From: Peribacillus asahii
GTDB lineage: Bacteria > Bacillota > Bacilli > Bacillales > DSM-1321
Reading direction: 5' to 3'
DNA: 40,000 nt
Assembly (NCBI RefSeq): GCF_003570725.1
Contig: NZ_QWVS01000013.1
Coordinates: forward strand, 1-40,000
Both the position numbers and the translations under genes were made by a program. This document shows positions 6,568 to 20,132 of the stretch, piece after piece; positions within the stretch are counted from its first letter, which is position 1, and each line of letters opens with the position of its first letter. The notes beneath the pieces are model-generated. The model was not told the origin of the DNA and searched no databases. It worked only from the letters and a program-made list of their open reading frames with translations.

Positions 6568-6800
6568 AACTATAATCCTCCTTAATAATTTACTAGCAAT
6601 ATTCTACTATACTTCCATAAAAAAGGAATGTTTAATTTCTAATTCATATTTACCACACAAATATAAAAAACACTTACATAGTAAGTGCTTCTTATACCCG
6701 AATTATAGTTAAGTAGATTAATAAAAATCGATATATTATTAATGGTCGTCATCTACTCTACTCCACAAAAAAAGCATCTAACCATACCTAAGTTAAATAC

Positions 6801-6911
6801 TCAATCTAAAGTGTTGGTAGTACCTACATTCTTCGCTATTTTAAAGGAAGAACGACAGCCACAAGCAGCAATGACATTTAGATTATCAATAGTAAATCCT
6901 CCGCCCATCAT
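6801..6911 (-). pseudogene. HesB/IscA-like C-terminal fragment
   Basis: 36-codon ORF MMGGGFTIDNLNVIAACGCRSSFKI... carrying the C-terminal CGC-x-SF motif typical of HesB/IscA proteins. Stop immediately upstream and no N-terminal part. Confidence 0.3.
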
Positions 6912-7084
6912 CGATTATTTGCCAATGTTGATATATCAAGGTTTTTTATTGTTTTTGGTGATTATGAATTGCAATCATGATTGTTAATTGCAAGCCTTCA
7001 CGATTGTTAATGTCGTTAACTGAATTATACCCAAAGTTTTACACTCAAACAAGTAATAGCCAACTTATAATTCCTTAATATAGT

Positions 7085-10658: not shown

Positions 10659-11093
10659 TTAGACAAATTTTCTTTCCTTGATCGGCTTGAGCCACCCAAA
10701 ACGCTCATGATCGAAATCAATAGCCAAGAAGCTAGGCCCACATTTACGAATACATTCAAAAAAAGCCGTTTCTGCTACATAGTCTCCGCTCGATTGAATC
10801 TCTAGAAAATCTCGATGAATCCATAAAGAAGCACAACTCCTGCCACTATTCTTTTCTAAGTAATATCCCCCATTTTGATAGCAAAAATTCTGCTTCTTTT
10901 GTTGTTCAATCACTTTCTTCACTTGCTCATTTGGAATAATTTTCGTTACATATTCAATTTGCTTGTGTAAAATATCTCGTAAAGATCCCGTTGTCTGAAT
11001 ATATTCCAAAAATAAATTGAAAAGTGACCTTTCTCTTCCAAAATAAAGCTGAGCAACTTCCTCTTCTATTAAATAGACTCGATAGGTTCTCAT
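10659..11093 (-). CDS. sirA: Sporulation inhibitor of replication SirA (YneE)
   Basis: 144 aa, alignable to B. subtilis SirA: YLIEEE...YFGRE, SGDY.AET.FFE..RK..P.FLA.DF...R.GWL.P.KER.FV. Located between tkt and yneF. Confidence 0.85.
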   Translation of the reverse strand: MRTYRVYLIEEEVAQLYFGRERSLFNLFLEYIQTTGSLRDILHKQIEYVTKIIPNEQVKKVIEQQKKQNFCYQNGGYYLEKNSGRSCASLWIHRDFLEIQSSGDYVAETAFFECIRKCGPSFLAIDFDHERFGWLKPIKERKFV

Positions 11094-11259
11094 TCAGCCA
11101 ACGCCTCCTCACACTTAATTTTTAATAACACATCATAGCAAAATCATATTTTTATATCCATCTAAAAATAGATTTATTTAGCATATTAAAATTCACTTCC
11201 ATTATATAGGATTCACCTAAAAAGATATGTTGTTTATTGAAAAAAAAAATTAGAACTTT

Positions 11260-11266
11260 TGTCGAA
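11260..11266 (+). promoter_or_regulatory. Consensus Spo0A box (TGTCGAA) upstream of sirA
   Basis: Exact 7-mer TGTCGAA about 170 nt upstream of the sirA start. sirA is a known Spo0A~P-activated gene in B. subtilis. Confidence 0.4.
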
Positions 11267-11327
11267 AGAAATCTAGTTAATCCAAAAAGCGTGCTAAAAC
11301 TTCACTTACTTTCATACTTTTTGACGA

Positions 11328-15566: not shown

Positions 15567-15588
15567 AAGCGCAACTCGCGCTTTTTTA
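15566..15588. terminator. Bidirectional terminator after lexA
   Basis: AAGCGC-aactc-GCGCTT followed by TTTTT. Confidence 0.75.
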
Positions 15589-15825
15589 TTTTAACCCTTT
15601 TTTCTCTAATTCTTCCTTTTGAATTCTTGCTTTTTTCGTCAACACATATGTGTTTTTATATACCGCATACATATTAACAACCAATGTGATAAACGCTGAT
15701 AATAGCCAAATAAATGCACTAATACTGTCTTCAGTAAACCAGTCCAATTTAATCCCAATCGTACTTAGGAAAAATAATAGAGCTGATAAAAAACCGGCCA
15801 GTAACGTTAAGAGGTCTTTAATCAC
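15586..15825 (-). CDS. Small 2-TM membrane protein, SPP1/XhlB-type holin-like
   Basis: 79 aa with two TM helices. The tail VYKNTYVLTKKARIQKEELEKKGLK resembles the W-F-K-N-N-Y-I-T basic tail of XhlB/SPP1-family holins. No adjacent lysin. Confidence 0.45.
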   Translation of the reverse strand: MIKDLLTLLAGFLSALLFFLSTIGIKLDWFTEDSISAFIWLLSAFITLVVNMYAVYKNTYVLTKKARIQKEELEKKGLK

Positions 15826-16249
15826 TACATTCCCCCCTTAAATAAATAGTGTCAGATCAGCAATAGTATCATACTTGTCCACTTTTAAAGGACGTAATCA
15901 ACTTACTTGTTCTGCATCATTATTTTATGCACACTATGGAAGAAAAGTGATACAATTCTTAGCCTATTTATCATCATCCCTCTATAATTATATACGGGGA
16001 ATTAACAACAATTAATTACTTATAGTTTACTAACACCGCTTTAGCTAAGGTTATATTAAATAGGCTTTGTTAAAATCGTATAAATCAACAATATTCATTA
16101 ACAAAGCCCTTAAATAAGAGAACTAACAAAACTCTCCATATATAATATAGCCTTTTCTAAAACAGACCTCTTTCTTATTAAATACATCTTATTGCCCAAA
16201 CTTATCTATCGCTCGATAATGTTGAACTGTAGCGCATTGTTATTCTGCT

Positions 16250-16498
16250 TTAATTAAATTCCCCTGCATGATATTTATTCAATAAGCGCTCTTGAACATA
16301 TTGCCTGCATTCGGGAGATAATAAAGACCTTTCAGGATGAATGATATCTCCAAAAGGTCTATCATCCAAAAATTTAACTTCTCCTTCAAATTCTCTCTCT
16401 AAAATGGCATCATATCCCTTTATTTTCACAAAAGTAGTGTTAAATCCCGTTGTGACAAAATCTACTATATACAAAACATGCTGATGCTTTTCAGACAT
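16250..16498 (-). CDS. Hypothetical protein (82 aa)
   Basis: ORF with a strong SD GGAGGAGGGA 6 nt before ATG 16498. The ORF-track start at 16537 lacks an SD. No family recognised. Confidence 0.55.
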   Translation of the reverse strand: MSEKHQHVLYIVDFVTTGFNTTFVKIKGYDAILEREFEGEVKFLDDRPFGDIIHPERSLLSPECRQYVQERLLNKYHAGEFN

Positions 16499-16732
16499 TG
16501 TGTGTCCCTCCTCCATATAATCCATAATTACATCCAAATCTATTGAAAAGCATATGTCAATAGATTCTCTAAAAGATAAAAAAACCGCTAGCGTTTAAAA
16601 CTTCAACAGTTCGAATAATATAGGCTTCTATGTAGAAATACATCGATAACCCCCATTAACATAACACGAATATTTGCAAACATATAATGGGTAATGAAAA
16701 TTATCATGATGTGATACAAACTAAAAAAGTAT

Positions 16733-16761
16733 AAAAAAAGACACCTCATTTAGGTGTTTTT
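16733..16761. terminator. Bidirectional terminator
   Basis: ACACCT-cattt-AGGTGT flanked by A7 and T4. On the minus strand it follows the 40-aa ORF. Confidence 0.7.
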
Positions 16762-16799
16762 CGTCATTGAATCTAATTATTGACAGACTTCTAAGCTTC

Positions 16800-16922
16800 T
16801 TATAAATCTGTTGTTTGCTCAAGTAGTTGATCAATATCTACTCTTTCTCGATTTAAAAAACAAGTCTCACCGACTGCATTACCTGTATCTTCCAATAATT
16901 TATCAATGTCTATTTGTTTCAT
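16800..16922 (-). CDS. 40-aa acidic peptide with an internal repeat
   Basis: MKQIDIDKLLEDTGNAVGETCFLNRERVDIDQLLEQTTDL. SD AAGGAG 9 nt upstream and a terminator downstream. The repeat is (I/V)DID(K/Q)LLE(D/Q)T. Below the ORF-track cutoff. Confidence 0.5.
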   Translation of the reverse strand: MKQIDIDKLLEDTGNAVGETCFLNRERVDIDQLLEQTTDL

Positions 16923-16950
16923 AAAAAAGAACTCCTTGAGGATATTTCCT

Positions 16951-17066
16951 AAAAAAAGACGGCCAGTACTAAAAAGAAACTGACCGTTTATGAAAAAAAA
17001 GAAAGCAATTAAAGTAATAACATTATTACTATACTTAGTATAAATTTTTTGTCGATTCTTGTCGAC
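16951..17066 (-). ncRNA. Module A: candidate Spo0A-controlled small RNA / attenuator leader
   Basis: Minus strand has TCGACA (17065-17060), N17, TATACT (17042-17037). Then an ~80-nt transcript with a 5' hairpin AGTAATAA/TTATTACT and a U/C-rich tract. Then a terminator ACGGTCAGT/ACTGGCCGT plus T7 (16951-16987). Plus-strand TGTCGAT-tct-TGTCGAC gives tandem 0A-like boxes. Paralog of 18814-18962. Confidence 0.45.
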
Positions 17067-17409
17067 AAGTAAATTGCGTCATAATATCTATAATTTCACA
17101 ATACTTAAAAGACACATGTAAGTCTCAGTATAAAAGTTCGCCTCTTTCTTAGCTAATCCTAATATTCGCCCTGTGCTTTCTCTCTCATTTTATGAAGCCG
17201 AGCAACTAATCCCCAAATTAGCCCGTTGTCAACGAGTATTATTTAACAAATCCACTTTCACGAAATCTGTCTTATTCGCCACCCTCTCTTATCAGCGACA
17301 ATCATATGTTTGATTTTCTGCTCATGCTCTTTTACCTAGTAGGCAAAACAAAAGAGCGAGCATTTAATACATTAAATGTTCACTCTTTTTATCCCTCAAA
17401 ACGCCCATT

Positions 17410-17811
17410 TTACTGTTGATGGCTATTTTGGTATGCCGTTGCAATAGCTTGCGCCTGTTGAAATTCTTGCTGTGCCTGTTGAACATCTTGTTGTTCTTTT
17501 TTAAGTTGTTGCTGTGCTTGCTGTAAATGCTGATTTTCAGTTTGTACCAATTGCTGTGCTTGAAGTAATTGCTGACTTTCTAGTTGTAACTTTTGATAGG
17601 CCTTTTGGACATCTTGCTGCAATTGTTCCAAGTGTTGTTGTTCCTGAAGAGTAGAAGGTTGAATACTTTGTAATTGTTGATGCGCTTGTTGGACAGCTTG
17701 TTGTGCTTGTTGCATTTGCTGTTCGCTTGTACTAGATTGCGCTTGTTTCACAGCTTGCTGAACAGATTGAGCCACTTCTGGCAATAACAACTGTTGATTT
17801 AGTTGTGTCAT
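17410..17811 (-). CDS. Glutamine-rich coiled-coil protein (possible spore-associated structural protein)
   Basis: 133 aa, of which I count 53 Gln (about 40%), in QQAQQ-type repeats. SD GTGGAGG upstream. An imperfect long hairpin plus T-run follows at about 17352-17395. Confidence 0.6.
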   Translation of the reverse strand: MTQLNQQLLLPEVAQSVQQAVKQAQSSTSEQQMQQAQQAVQQAHQQLQSIQPSTLQEQQHLEQLQQDVQKAYQKLQLESQQLLQAQQLVQTENQHLQQAQQQLKKEQQDVQQAQQEFQQAQAIATAYQNSHQQ

Positions 17812-18051
17812 AAAACAAAAGCCTCCACTAATTATTATTTATTACTTAAAATGCTCTTTCATTATCGTGCTCATAATAGCTGTTTCTATGCTATAACTCA
17901 GTTTAAACGCATCAGTATGATCTCCATACCTTTAGTGCACAATTAATAAAACATTCTTGCTTATCCTATGCATCGCTCATATAAAAGACAGCAACTTTTT
18001 ATACTATTTTTGTCCATGTTTTTTATTAAACTAAAATAAGACTTTAAACAT

Positions 18052-18075
18052 AAAAAGACCGCCCAAAAGGGCAGC
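18052..18075 (-). terminator. Terminator of the YjcZ-like gene
   Basis: Minus-strand CTGCCC-tttt-GGGCGG, which includes a G-U pair that is a C-A mismatch on the plus strand, followed by TCTTTTT. Confidence 0.6.
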
Positions 18076-18084
18076 TTTTCATGT

Positions 18085-18264
18085 TTAACAGTATGCACCA
18101 TATCCATGGGCTGGGGCTGCATATCCGCCACCAAATCCACCACAGAAACTAGCTCCTACGATAATTAAGAGAATAAACAATACAACTAAAAAGGCAAATC
18201 CACCACCAAATCCACAGCCTCTGTCAAATCCATCACAACAATCATCTTTACGAACGCCAGACAT
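18085..18264 (-). CDS. YjcZ-family tiny sporulation membrane protein
   Basis: 59 aa: MSGVRKDDCCDGFDRGCGFGGGFAFLVVLFILLIIVGASFCGGFGGGYAAPAHGYGAYC. Gly/Cys-rich flanks surround the FALLVVLFILLIIVGA core typical of YjcZ-like proteins. SD AAGGAG 7 nt upstream. It replaces the spurious ORF-track frame 17961-18143. Confidence 0.7.
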   Translation of the reverse strand: MSGVRKDDCCDGFDRGCGFGGGFAFLVVLFILLIIVGASFCGGFGGGYAAPAHGYGAYC

Positions 18265-18619
18265 ACAATCACTCCTTATTTGTTTTAAGGAGGTACTTAA
18301 ATGGGTTAATTTATTCTATGTTCCATATAGGTTAATGACACAATTTATTTTTCTTCCGCTCCCACAAGCATAATTCCGAAGGCGAATGAGTTAAAATTAT
18401 TATGTTACTTCTTATAAAAAACTAAAATCCCCTCTCCTATTATGGAGAAGGGAGCGCATCCGTCGCTAGAAAGAAGCTTCACTATTATAACAACTTGAAC
18501 AGTTTTTATACAATTATTTAGAACAGCATGTTCCAAGTCTTGATGACCTAACACTGGATGGGTAAGATTAGCAACAACAATCCAACCTCATCATATCCAC
18601 GCTTACTTGATATTCCCCC

Positions 18620-18748
18620 TCAATCCGCAGCCATTTCCGTTATAAAGTCAAATGCATTTACAATGAATAAGCACGTTAATAAGGCGGACCAACCACCGAC
18701 TAGCTATCCAATAAAACGACCAATTGTAACTTTTAAAAAAGTCTCCAT
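18620..18748 (-). pseudogene. Small membrane-peptide ORF interrupted by an in-frame TAG
   Basis: METFLKVTIGRFIG-TAG-LVGGWSALLTCLFIVNAFDFITEMAAD. SD AGGTG 5 nt upstream. TAG at 18704-18706. Lies 66 nt downstream of the module B terminator. Confidence 0.35.
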
Positions 18749-18813
18749 TCGCACACCTGCTTTACATAAAAATAGTCCCGATTGGTTTGGGGCAACTCAG
18801 GTCATAATGTAGT

Positions 18814-18962
18814 AAAAAAGACAGCCAGTTTTAAAGGGAACTGACTGTCTCAATGAGTAAAAAGAAAACAATCATCGCAACACGATTGCCTTCTATATAC
18901 ATTATAAAACTTTTGTCGAAATATGTCGATATAAACCGCATAAATTAGATGTTTTGTCGAAT
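18814..18962 (-). ncRNA. Module B: candidate Spo0A-controlled small RNA / attenuator leader (paralog of module A)
   Basis: Minus strand has TCGACA (18930-18925), N17, TATAAT (18907-18902). Then an ~82-nt transcript with a 5' hairpin and a U/C-rich tract. Then a terminator ACAGTCAGT/ACTGGCTGT plus T6 (18814-18851). Plus-strand TGTCGAA-ata-TGTCGAT (18915-18931), plus a third perfect TGTCGAA at 18956-18962. Confidence 0.45.
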
Positions 18963-19368
18963 GATGCAGATAGCATTAATCTCTTATAAAATTTAATTTA
19001 ATGATTTTATATTAAATTAAACAGGAATAATCCTCTCTCTTACAATATCCCCCTGCTTGGGAATGGATAATAAGGTGCCGTACATGCAGCCCTTGAAGAA
19101 ATTTACGTTCATCAATCACTAGTCTCTCTTCACTATTTTTGGAGGAAACATCTCCTCACCGACTTATAGTGGAAAATTTAATATTTCTGTTACCACAGCC
19201 CCCTCATGTCATGAGTCCAATTAAAGATTATTAATCAATATTTACTTCCATCAGCTAAACAGCCTAAAAATTTTTTATCGTAGCATTACATTTTTGTAAT
19301 AATTAGTTTATAATGTTAAATATTTATTTAATTTTGGTCTTTAATTACAAGTCAGCAGGAGGTAAGTC

Positions 19369-19539
19369 ATGAACACAAAAACTTTATCTCTTAAGCATCT
19401 GGAAACCTCCATTTCTTATTTGAGAACTCATATGATTACTATTGGAATATCAAAAGGACTTACACATTCTGATACAATTAAGTACAGTCAAAAGTTAGAT
19501 ATTTTATTGAACGAATACCAGAAAATTAAATCAAGCTGA
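19369..19539 (+). CDS. Spo0E-family sporulation regulatory (aspartyl-phosphate) phosphatase
   Basis: 56 aa: MNTKTLSLKHLETSISYLRTHMITIGISKGLTHSDTIKYSQKLDILLNEYQKIKSS. Has the SQxLDxLLNxYQ motif of Spo0E/YnzD/YisI-type proteins. SD AGGAGG 6 nt upstream. Promoter-like TTACAT-N17-TATAAT. Below the ORF-track cutoff. Confidence 0.7.
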   Translation: MNTKTLSLKHLETSISYLRTHMITIGISKGLTHSDTIKYSQKLDILLNEYQKIKSS

Positions 19540-19648
19540 TAACACTTTTAAAAGTGCTTTACGAACTCTTAAATTCCCCTGTATCAAGTGAATCCAAAAT
19601 ACATATAGTAATACAGAGCAAGGCGTTTAGTCATCGAGATGAACACCA

Positions 19649-20132
19649 GTGAGCCTTGCTCTTTTGTTGCGTCTTCTCTTCGTACTGTTTTCATTAAGTT
19701 ACTTTTCTTTCCTCATTAACCACTCACTCAATCCCTGTTCATTAACAAAGGCCTTAGTTACTTCATACATTATTTTAAAAACGGGATTGAACTTCACGGG
19801 GAGATTGATTGACGTATCAACATCACGACATTAATTAAAACTTTTTGATGAAAACAAGCTTATACAAACTTACCCGATTGCAGTTGGAAAAATATTGTCC
19901 CCAACACCTTCTGGGACATACACGATTACCAATAAACAACCTAATCCCGACGGACCATTTGGAGTGCTTTGGATGGGATTATCAAGATCCCACTACGGTA
20001 TACATGAAACAAATAATTCTATCTTCAATCGGTAAGGATGTCTCACATGGATATATTAGAATGTTTAATGATGATGTTCTAGAATTATCATCTAGCGTTC
20101 CAATTAGTACTGGCGTTTCCATTCATAAATAA
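19649..20132 (+). pseudogene. L,D-transpeptidase (YkuD domain) pseudogene
   Basis: Frames piece together as IDVSTSRH-TAA-LKLFDENKLIQTYPIAVGKILSPTPSGTYTITNKQPNPDGPFGVLWMGLSRSHYGIHETNN, then a frameshift, then SIGKDVSHGYIRMFNDDVLEL. The catalytic SHGCIRM Cys is Tyr here. Confidence 0.75.

Follow-up and report, generated by a model that had tools for sequence, protein, structure and literature searches.

Morons of the HK97 type are autonomous units of promoter and terminator inserted between genes that are adjacent in a related phage, and DicF and IpeX of the cryptic prophages of E. coli are likewise autonomous promoter-and-terminator units kept in defective prophages. Type III toxIN loci are laid out as a promoter, a small RNA, a terminator and then an open reading frame (ORF). 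The CiaR-controlled csRNAs of streptococci carry CAU as an anti-start codon in 53 of 61 cases (PMC3091779). In phages phi29 and Nf, a pair of 0A boxes with 3 bp between them gives a footprint of 25-30 bp that takes in part of the core promoter, and the promoter is repressed (PMC2731898). We compared with these systems a stretch of 40,000 nucleotides from Peribacillus asahii (contig NZ_QWVS01000013.1, positions 1 to 40,000; hereafter the window), which holds two related minus-strand units, module B and its paralog module A. Module B looks like an independent minus-strand transcription unit, predicted from its sequence to be the gene of a structured non-coding RNA of about 80 nt. With a probability of about one half, we read the whole package as a prophage-derived, moron-like small-RNA and leader cassette that would be on in growth and shut off by phosphorylated Spo0A (Spo0A~P).

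Read on the minus strand from 18929 to 18814, module B runs from the boxes through the -10 hexamer into the transcribed region ATAGAAGGCAATCGTGTTGCGATGATTGTTTTCTTTTTACTCATTGAGACAGTCAGTTCCCTTTAAAACTGGCTGTCTTTTTT. Its parts, and the repeats just upstream, lie at the following window positions:

18911-18930, minus strand: tandem direct repeat of period 10, TCGACA (18929-18924), TATT, TCGACAAAA (18919-18911); the distal copy is the -35 hexamer and the proximal copy fills the spacer.
18914-18920 and 18924-18930, in plus-strand reading: the boxes TGTCGAA and TGTCGAT, separated by ata in a 7+3+7 geometry.
18901-18906, minus strand: -10 hexamer TATAAT, 17 bp from the -35 hexamer TCGACA.
18814-18894, minus strand: predicted non-coding RNA of about 81 nt, called from its fold, covariance-model score and covariation.
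18894-18863, minus strand: 5' hairpin of this RNA.
18855-18853, minus strand: CAU of the single-stranded linker UUUUACUCAUUGA.
18851-18818, minus strand: terminator stem-loop, followed by the U tail.
18952-18972, unstranded: second, upstream copy of the 21-bp box pair (TTTTGTCGAATGATGCAGATA; D1 repeat family, 81% identity).
18990-19001 and 19007-19018, unstranded: AT-only inverted repeat upstream of the boxes, with 12-nt arms that are 92% complementary.

The promoter of module B matches the sigma-70 consensus at 11 of 12 positions with a 17-bp spacer. A second -10-like hexamer, TATAGT, was considered as an overlapping promoter or a sigma-dependent pause signal and was set aside, as no such -10 is kept in the other copies. 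A sequence-only reading of this stretch had described perfect tandem 0A boxes. The boxes are present, each one base from where that reading placed it, and "perfect" is right for one member of the pair (TGTCGAA) and overstated for the other (TGTCGAT). The upstream pair, 41 bp from the first, combines a perfect TGTCGAA (18955-18961) with a degenerate partner. The AT-only inverted repeat had also been noticed correctly, although not with the 11-bp length and the position 18993-19022 assigned to it.

The minus strand of module B folds at -32.2 kcal/mol (z -6.4) versus -19.7 for the plus strand, on which the hairpin has no U-run, and covariance model R1, built for the RNA, gives module B 80.9 bits. 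Module B has its own promoter and intrinsic terminator, and no upstream gene on the same strand uses that terminator; the nearest such gene, glnA, has a terminator of its own at 20592-20560, and the module B hairpin is thus no terminator of an upstream gene. Minus-strand ORFs differ between the two modules (14 aa in module B, 4 aa in module A), and no ORF on the RNA strand is conserved across copies. Taken with the comparisons below, a small-RNA gene is a credible reading of module B.

Module A, with the gene that follows it, provides the closest comparison within the window:

16951-17065, minus strand: module A, paralog of module B by boxes, promoter, fold, covariance-model score and alignment.
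17065-17047, minus strand: module A boxes, TCGACA-AGAA-TCGACAAAA.
17042-17037, minus strand: module A -10 hexamer TATACT.
17030-16953, minus strand: module A RNA of about 78 nt, with terminator arms at 16987-16979 and 16967-16959.
16800-16922, minus strand: gene of a 40-aa acidic peptide (MKQIDIDKLLEDT...VDIDQLLEQTTDL), whose Shine-Dalgarno sequence begins about 20 nt after the module A terminator.

The combination TCGACA-N4-TCGACAAAA occurs exactly twice in the 40-kb window, at 17047-17065 and 18911-18929, where 0.01 occurrences are expected by chance, and the two modules align, as the sequence-only reading had it, in one register; their identity is 72-77% across about 110-150 nt. The module A promoter matches the sigma-70 consensus at 10 of 12 positions, with a 17-bp spacer between TCGACA and TATACT; its RNA folds at -17.1 kcal/mol (z -5.5) on the minus strand versus -13.8 on the plus strand and scores 95.4 bits with R1. 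The paired substitution claimed for the terminator is borne out by comparing the stems, which are ACGGTCAGT/ACTGGCCGT in module A and ACAGTCAGT/ACTGGCTGT in module B and differ by a G-C to A-U double change, as is the central position, a U·G wobble in the minus-strand RNA that would be a C-A mismatch on the plus strand. Better folding of the minus strand, and G·U pairs that are valid there only, agree with the earlier proposal that the structure acts in the minus-strand transcript.

To place the two modules in a wider family, we used pattern scans and the covariance model. A promoter-based pattern scan of one genome per species (185k species genomes) yielded 3 real loci (L116, L118 and L119) and 6 chance loci, and a body-only pattern scan of metagenomes yielded 3 real loci (L138, L158 and L200) among the 118 matches listed; a loose promoter pattern in a viral collection returned chance matches only. 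Model R1 recovers 11 copies with 71-98 bits; beyond these it matches nothing in the window and nothing in control loci that total about 1 Mb. The idea that modules A and B are a recent duplication without relatives does not stand: there are relatives elsewhere, and an old paralogy, in which module B is no recent duplicate of module A, is supported. Module A was found in all four strains seen, and against strain L120 it is 97% identical while its flanks are 87% identical. The L116 metagenome-assembled genome is labelled 'Ureibacillus sp.'; it has protein clusters at least 90% identical to those of P. asahii, with 95-96% for module A and an 82-aa protein encoded nearby, and is probably mislabelled.

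The RNA secondary structure is maintained by compensatory changes and is under selection. Across the 11 copies the terminator helix is 98.9% paired, both sides have changed in 5 of its 8 pairs, and the covariation score was reached by none of 500 shuffles, while slid controls collapse. The 5' helix is weaker, with 83% paired across copies. At the wobble position seven copies have U·G, and G·U, C-G, U-A and U·U occur once each; because of these U·G and G·U pairs, and of additional G·U pairs elsewhere in the helix, the terminator helix is coherent as minus-strand RNA only. Folding of both module RNAs, which the sequence-only reading had proposed, gave a 5' hairpin, a linker and the terminator, and this fold is common to all copies, the short linker ending in CAU. 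A U-rich tract (UUGYUUUCUUUUU) is kept in nearly all copies, and at 85-88% identity the fold is unchanged in the B-type paralogs L158 and L200. In L118, two RNA bodies lie in tandem (6783-7030), the second without a box-bearing promoter and both with weak U tails, and a separate strong terminator follows them.

Searches of Rfam at gathering and permissive thresholds gave no family match for module B, the best sub-threshold match over it being the atoC RNA (23.6 bits against a threshold of 50). The RNA of about 80 nt is an undescribed family, missing from Rfam. At the gathering threshold Rfam matches the window once, in an 89-nt long-arm tRNA at 2450-2538 on the plus strand.

We then considered what might bind the repeats in the promoter. 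In plus-strand reading both repeats are TTTGTCGA(A/T/C) in direct orientation, and the 7+3+7 geometry, which agrees with a Spo0A dimer site, is found in modules A and B and in L116, L120, L138A, L119, L118a and L158. The repeats lie between about -37 and -16, in a promoter that is near-optimal already in its hexamers and spacing. A DNA-binding protein would be expected there, because the spacer repeat, on which polymerase places no sequence requirement, keeps its 10-bp period and its CG in 8 of 9 promoter-bearing copies (including L158, which was found without the promoter pattern), and because all these copies have TCGACA at the -35, with no case of TTGACA. Spo0A suggests itself as this protein: the proximal box of module B (TTTGTCGAAA, 18911-18920) matches the extended 0A form at 10 of 10 positions, the 3-bp-spaced unit of phi29 and Nf has been footprinted, and the 12-mer of this box (TTTCGACAAAAG) recurs upstream of sirA at 11257-11268 (minus-strand reading), in the same orientation relative to the gene. 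sirA is a direct target of Spo0A in B. subtilis. Since the candidate boxes lie over the -35 and the spacer of an optimal promoter, the prediction is repression by Spo0A~P and not induction, and the cassette is probably repressed in this way. Significance attaches to the tandem arrangement alone: single TGTCGAA heptamers occur 6 times in the window where 4.4 are expected, which is no enrichment. Upstream of the boxes, at about -75 to -37, there is a conserved block, GAATAGTGAAAAT…ATTATGRCGYAATTTAC (window 17085-17125 and the corresponding stretches of L116, L119, L118a and L158); A-type copies and some B-type copies have it, and part of it is homologous to the ribosome-binding region of the holin in the junction described below.

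Most copies are followed by a short gene. The 40-aa ORF after module A is identical to a P. asahii protein, and the terminator is followed by a peptide Shine-Dalgarno sequence within about 0-20 nt in module A, L116, L120, L138A, L119, L244 and L246, and after a gap of about 115 nt in L200. The module-linked peptides have 34-42 aa and are acidic, with the consensus M..IDIDKLLExT…(I/V)(D/E)IDQLL, in which one motif is duplicated; the family as a whole spans 34-48 aa (IDIDKLLExT … (I/V)(D/E)IDQLLExTxDW), forms about 10 clusters at 50% identity in a profile search, and has no match in Pfam, PHROGs or PADLOC. The acidic peptide with its duplicated IDID(K/Q)LLE motif is an undescribed family. Members lie at window 16800-16922 (minus strand), L119 1866-1976 and L200 1307-1420, and include P0009-P0017. 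The gap between terminator and peptide gene is too small for a promoter and contains nothing promoter-like, so the peptide mRNA must come from read-through. A riboswitch-like attenuator was considered for this step and rejected; in folds of the nascent RNA from five copies there is no competing antiterminator structure, and pairing of the terminator 5' arm gains only 0-3 kcal/mol. With no antiterminator fold, the terminator looks like a fixed leaky attenuator.

Not every cassette has a peptide gene, and not every peptide gene has a cassette. Module B and the tandem bodies of L118 have no peptide gene, and the distant peptide genes of L245, L247 and L248 have no module and a different upstream region. 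These three share GTTTA-N14/15-GGGTAWAWAA upstream (L245 2930-3000, L247 1730-1808, L248 3925-4000), which resembles forespore promoters of the sigma-F/G type, and they lie near genes for a YkuD+PG_binding L,D-transpeptidase and a DUF1694 protein, remnants of which also adjoin module B. We also considered the 40-aa peptide as a Spo0E mimic on account of a DxLL motif and rejected this, as there was no Pfam match at E=10 and no BLASTP alignment to the Spo0E-like protein of the window.

The surroundings of module B point to a prophage, and its immediate flanks are as follows:

18531-18748, minus strand: frameshifted phage-holin pseudogene (phage_holin_4-type), directly downstream of the module B terminator.
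18749-18813, minus strand: pre-holin junction, ACATTATGACCTGAG, hairpin, TATTTTTATGTAAAGCAGGTG, duplicated on both sides of module copies at other loci.
19012-19144, minus strand: prophage gene fragments upstream of module B, with matches to L272.

L272 is an intact, myovirus-like P. asahii prophage in which the series of small membrane-protein gene, GC hairpin, TATTTTTATGTAGAGCAGG and holin is interrupted by no module, so that the junction is empty. The holin pseudogene shares 70% nucleotide identity with the L272 holin and 70% amino-acid identity with residues 10-55 of the L158 holin, residues 66-83 being in another frame. Upstream of module B, 19057-19103 is 83% identical to L272 9841-9886, in the small membrane-protein gene that precedes the holin of the intact prophage, and 19108-19144 is 89% identical to L272 4273-4310, a baseplate-region fragment. 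A plus-strand '84-aa ORF' reported by gene callers at 18558-18812 is an antisense artefact of the minus-strand holin pseudogene.

In L158, L200 and window module B, the module sits at this pre-holin junction with the junction sequence repeated on both sides at a spacing of about 208 bp, which suggests that the cassette was gained by recombination there. The direct repeats that bracket the modules consist of a gene 3' end, a GC hairpin and TATTTTTATGT (L158 106-126 and 314-334; L200 1518-1531 and 1727-1740), and the intact prophage carries the junction once (L272 9940-9985). Like a moron, the cassette has an autonomous promoter and terminator and is inserted between genes that are adjacent in a related phage, here L272. 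In L158 it is followed by a secreted 179-aa protein, the holin and an amidase. Because their neighbours are P. asahii proteins, L158 and L200 are further paralogous copies in the pan-genome of the species and do not represent orthologs of another species. At least four copies of the family, variable between strains, belong to this pan-genome, and the L200-type site is empty in strain OM18. The cassette is carried in decayed lysis regions of prophages, in P. asahii and in a few Bacillaceae related to it. Genes of IS200/IS605-family transposases adjoin the L200 module-peptide unit (L200 659-1141, minus strand) and a homolog of the 82-aa protein in L123 (6650-7822).

The interval that contains both modules lies within the gene order sirA, tkt, ynzC, yneB, yneA, lexA (opposite strand), about 5 kb of other sequence, glnA and glnR. 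Two neighbours that the sequence-only reading had pointed out were confirmed:

19369-19539: Spo0E-like gene (Pfam E 5e-15).
10659-11093: sirA (Pfam E 5e-44).

Besides the modules and the Spo0E-like gene, the 5-kb interval between lexA and glnA contains an SPP1-type holin, the 82-aa protein, a Q-rich 133-aa protein, a YjcZ-like peptide and a YkuD fragment. From 15586 to 20132 it is a junkyard of prophage and pseudogene remnants, with the intact SPP1-type holin at 15586-15825 and the YkuD fragment at 19845-20132. Where the window has the module B segment, a PG_binding fragment is found in sister strain L120. The Q-rich, coiled-coil-like protein (17410-17811, minus strand) lies between the modules, is 97-99% conserved among strains, has no family assignment, and its gene contains a 21-bp tandem DNA repeat at 17453-17517. 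Synteny was also followed through the 82-aa neighbour and gave no lead, since its homologs have unrelated surroundings, a phage tail module among them, and in no case a cassette.

The mechanism we favour combines these elements as follows. A near-consensus sigma-A promoter would produce an RNA of about 80 nt from the minus strand, ended by a strong intrinsic terminator. A Spo0A~P dimer on the two direct TCGACA(AA) repeats, from -37 to -16, would occlude RNA polymerase, so the cassette would be on in growing lysogens and shut off at sporulation entry, which is how the A2c promoter of phi29 and Nf behaves. The terminator, being a fixed leaky attenuator, would allow abundant short RNA and only a little peptide mRNA by read-through. 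This RNA may act in trans, its exposed U-rich/CAU tract pairing with AUG-proximal A-rich start regions as the streptococcal csRNAs do; such trans-action is plausible. Module B, which has no peptide gene and faces a dead holin, would in this genome be only a stand-alone small RNA, and it is likely being lost.

Several results weigh against this account. Most boxes are only 6/7 matches (TGTCGAT or TGTCGAC) to the 0A box TGTCGAA, among them the distal box of module B and both boxes of module A (TGTCGAT and TGTCGAC). L200, which was found independently of its promoter, keeps the distal box without the proximal one, and L138B and L246 have no boxes altogether. The remaining copies were found by a pattern that contains the boxes or are close relatives, and the use of that pattern for several copies biases the apparent conservation of the boxes. 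When the window is compared with L138, the body of module B (94%) is conserved no better than its flank (93%), and the AUUGYUUUC tract is buried in the 5' stem of B-type copies. RNA duplex energies to all ORF starts of the window, and to the start regions of the spo0E-like gene, sirA, the holin and the peptide, were no better than shuffled controls, so complementarity to the spo0E-like, sirA and other neighbouring start regions does not exceed chance. Finally, no copy of the family was found in IMG/VR viral contigs, INPHARED phage genomes or plasmids, and all copies seen are in remnants or short contigs.

A serious alternative, and to us a possible one, is that module B is a non-functional, decaying relic whose intact-looking signals come from recent common ancestry and not from selection. 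Pseudogenes and gene fragments flank it; in L138 the RNA body is kept and 321 bp including promoter and boxes are missing (18899-19219), in L120 the whole 675-bp module B segment is missing, and the equal conservation of RNA body and flank in L138 would be expected of a relic. The details of divergence speak for retention, however. All 5 substitutions in the RNA body relative to L138B are structure-compatible, namely GG>AA, which turns two G·U pairs into A-U pairs, one compensatory A-U>G-C double change and one loop change. The window copy also has a perfect -10 and both boxes, and the fold persists in the more diverged paralogs L158 and L200.

We consider it unlikely that modules A and B are what the sequence-only reading took them for, a dedicated chromosomal pair of Spo0A-controlled, trans-acting small RNAs that tune sporulation initiation through the UUGYUUUCUUUUU tract; spo0E-like, sirA or phosphorelay mRNAs would be examples of its targets. 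Tandem 0A-type boxes with a second pair 41 bp upstream in module B, a structured stand-alone RNA unit, a tract conserved in nearly all copies, and the nearby Spo0E-like gene and sirA, the latter with the same upstream 12-mer, would all fit such a pair, and SR1/kinA (PMC8501984) and the SpoX/SpoY network of C. difficile (PMC10267692) are precedents. Yet the Spo0E-like gene is present in both L138 and L120, where module B is promoter-less or missing, so the gene lies there independently of module B. The copies are accessory and strain-variable, belong to degraded prophages and, at four or more in the species, are no pair; most are fused to a peptide gene. Complementarity to the spo0E-like and sirA start regions is at the level of chance, and the promoter architecture predicts repression, not induction. 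The framing moves from a core sporulation regulator to accessory cargo of prophage remnants, with a Spo0A input that is probable.

Similarly improbable is a purely cis-acting leader for the downstream genes (the peptide gene, or a secreted protein with holin and amidase), with read-through dependent on a factor that would modify RNA polymerase or bind to the 5' hairpin. The TCGACA repeats would then be recognised by a phage regulator and not by Spo0A, on the model of lambda PR'-tR' and Q. Q-binding elements lie within the promoter spacer, and here too a conserved repeat lies inside the spacer. Such a leader would account for the lack of a promoter between terminator and downstream gene in 6 lineages, for the position of the L158 cassette before the secreted protein, holin and amidase, for the loop sequence GUUGC that is conserved in B-type 5' hairpins, and for T-rich tracts on the non-template strand. 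It is harder to reconcile with orphan copies that have nothing to regulate (module B and the L118 tandem), with an intact prophage, L272, whose holin has no cassette, and with repeats that match the 0A consensus well; no antiterminator gene or alternative RNA fold was identified.

A broader extension of the account we favour is distinctly speculative, and we hold it doubtful. Under it, the cassette would be a mobile, Spo0A-gated small-RNA module with an optional IDIDKLLE peptide, planted by temperate phages of spore-formers before their lysis genes; through it the prophage would read the sporulation decision of the host, and the RNA or the peptide would in turn influence the development of the host or the timing of lysis. 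It would then be an RNA-based counterpart of the 0A-box strategy of phi29, spread by recombination at the duplicated pre-holin junction.

The least probable alternative by far is a plus-strand product, in the form of a small peptide beginning MKKKK(A/T)I from the complement of the U-rich tract, where the invariant CAT reads as ATG and is followed by Lys codons in every copy, or a type I or type III toxin-antitoxin locus, which the toxIN-like layout of promoter, RNA, terminator and ORF brings to mind: plus-strand ORFs range from 10 to 31 aa with no Shine-Dalgarno sequence and no conservation of length, the hairpin has C-A mismatches on that strand, TRF finds no tandem repeat in the RNA, PADLOC gives no match for the peptide and, among the downstream proteins, no relevant match (only a weak JetC-like one, E 8e-4, for the Q-rich protein), and the downstream peptide is acidic, hydrophilic and not overlapped by the RNA, and is no membrane toxin or endoribonuclease. 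A defence system was rejected on the same repeat and PADLOC results.

If the boxes are real Spo0A sites, the prophage-derived cassette would be a compact natural example of non-coding prophage cargo wired to the master regulator of sporulation, and the idea established with phi29, that phages monitor Spo0A, would extend to temperate elements and to RNA products. It also adds two undescribed families, one of RNA and one of peptide, in a cultivable organism. Its scope is narrow, in P. asahii and a few related Bacillaceae, and module B is partly decayed, which makes the practical importance modest.

Set beside the described systems, the cassette has partial counterparts in each. The CiaR csRNAs are also multi-copy RNAs (about 50-200 nt) with two stem-loops and an unpaired region between them, and they are made from a strong promoter with a response-regulator direct repeat of about one helical turn (TTTAAG-N5-TTTAAG). 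They have no sequence or Rfam relationship to the cassette RNA, which is without a clear anti-Shine-Dalgarno sequence. CiaR activates, whereas the repeat of the cassette is Spo0A-like and lies over the -35 and spacer of a complete promoter, where repression is expected, and the cassette occurs in prophage remnants, in most copies joined to a peptide gene. SR1, which acts on kinA in B. subtilis, and SpoX and SpoY of C. difficile are likewise small RNAs linked to the Spo0A pathway in endospore formers (PMC8501984, PMC10267692); they are unrelated in sequence and have demonstrated targets, while none was found for the cassette RNA among the start regions of the window. The type III toxIN loci share the order of promoter, small RNA, intrinsic terminator and promoter-less ORF, and are often on mobile DNA. 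Their RNA has tandem 34-38-nt repeats that the cassette RNA lacks, and the cassette has a short acidic peptide gene or unrelated genes downstream.

A counterpart of the control region is the A2c promoter of phi29 and Nf (site 0A-1), where two 0A boxes lie 3 bp apart in phage DNA and a strong sigma-A promoter is repressed through a 25-30-bp footprint on the core promoter (PMC2731898); the sites of the cassette are predicted only, and its boxes are mostly 6/7 matches. A2c drives early protein-coding operons of a lytic phage, unlike the cassette, which would give a terminated RNA of about 80 nt from a prophage remnant. Counterparts of the unit as a whole are the morons and the small RNAs of prophages, which like the cassette are inserted between genes adjacent in a related phage and are retained in defective prophages. 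The cassette differs from typical morons in that it carries no typical protein but a non-coding RNA, to which a 34-42-aa peptide may or may not be added, and in that its flanks duplicate about 40-60 bp of the pre-holin junction.

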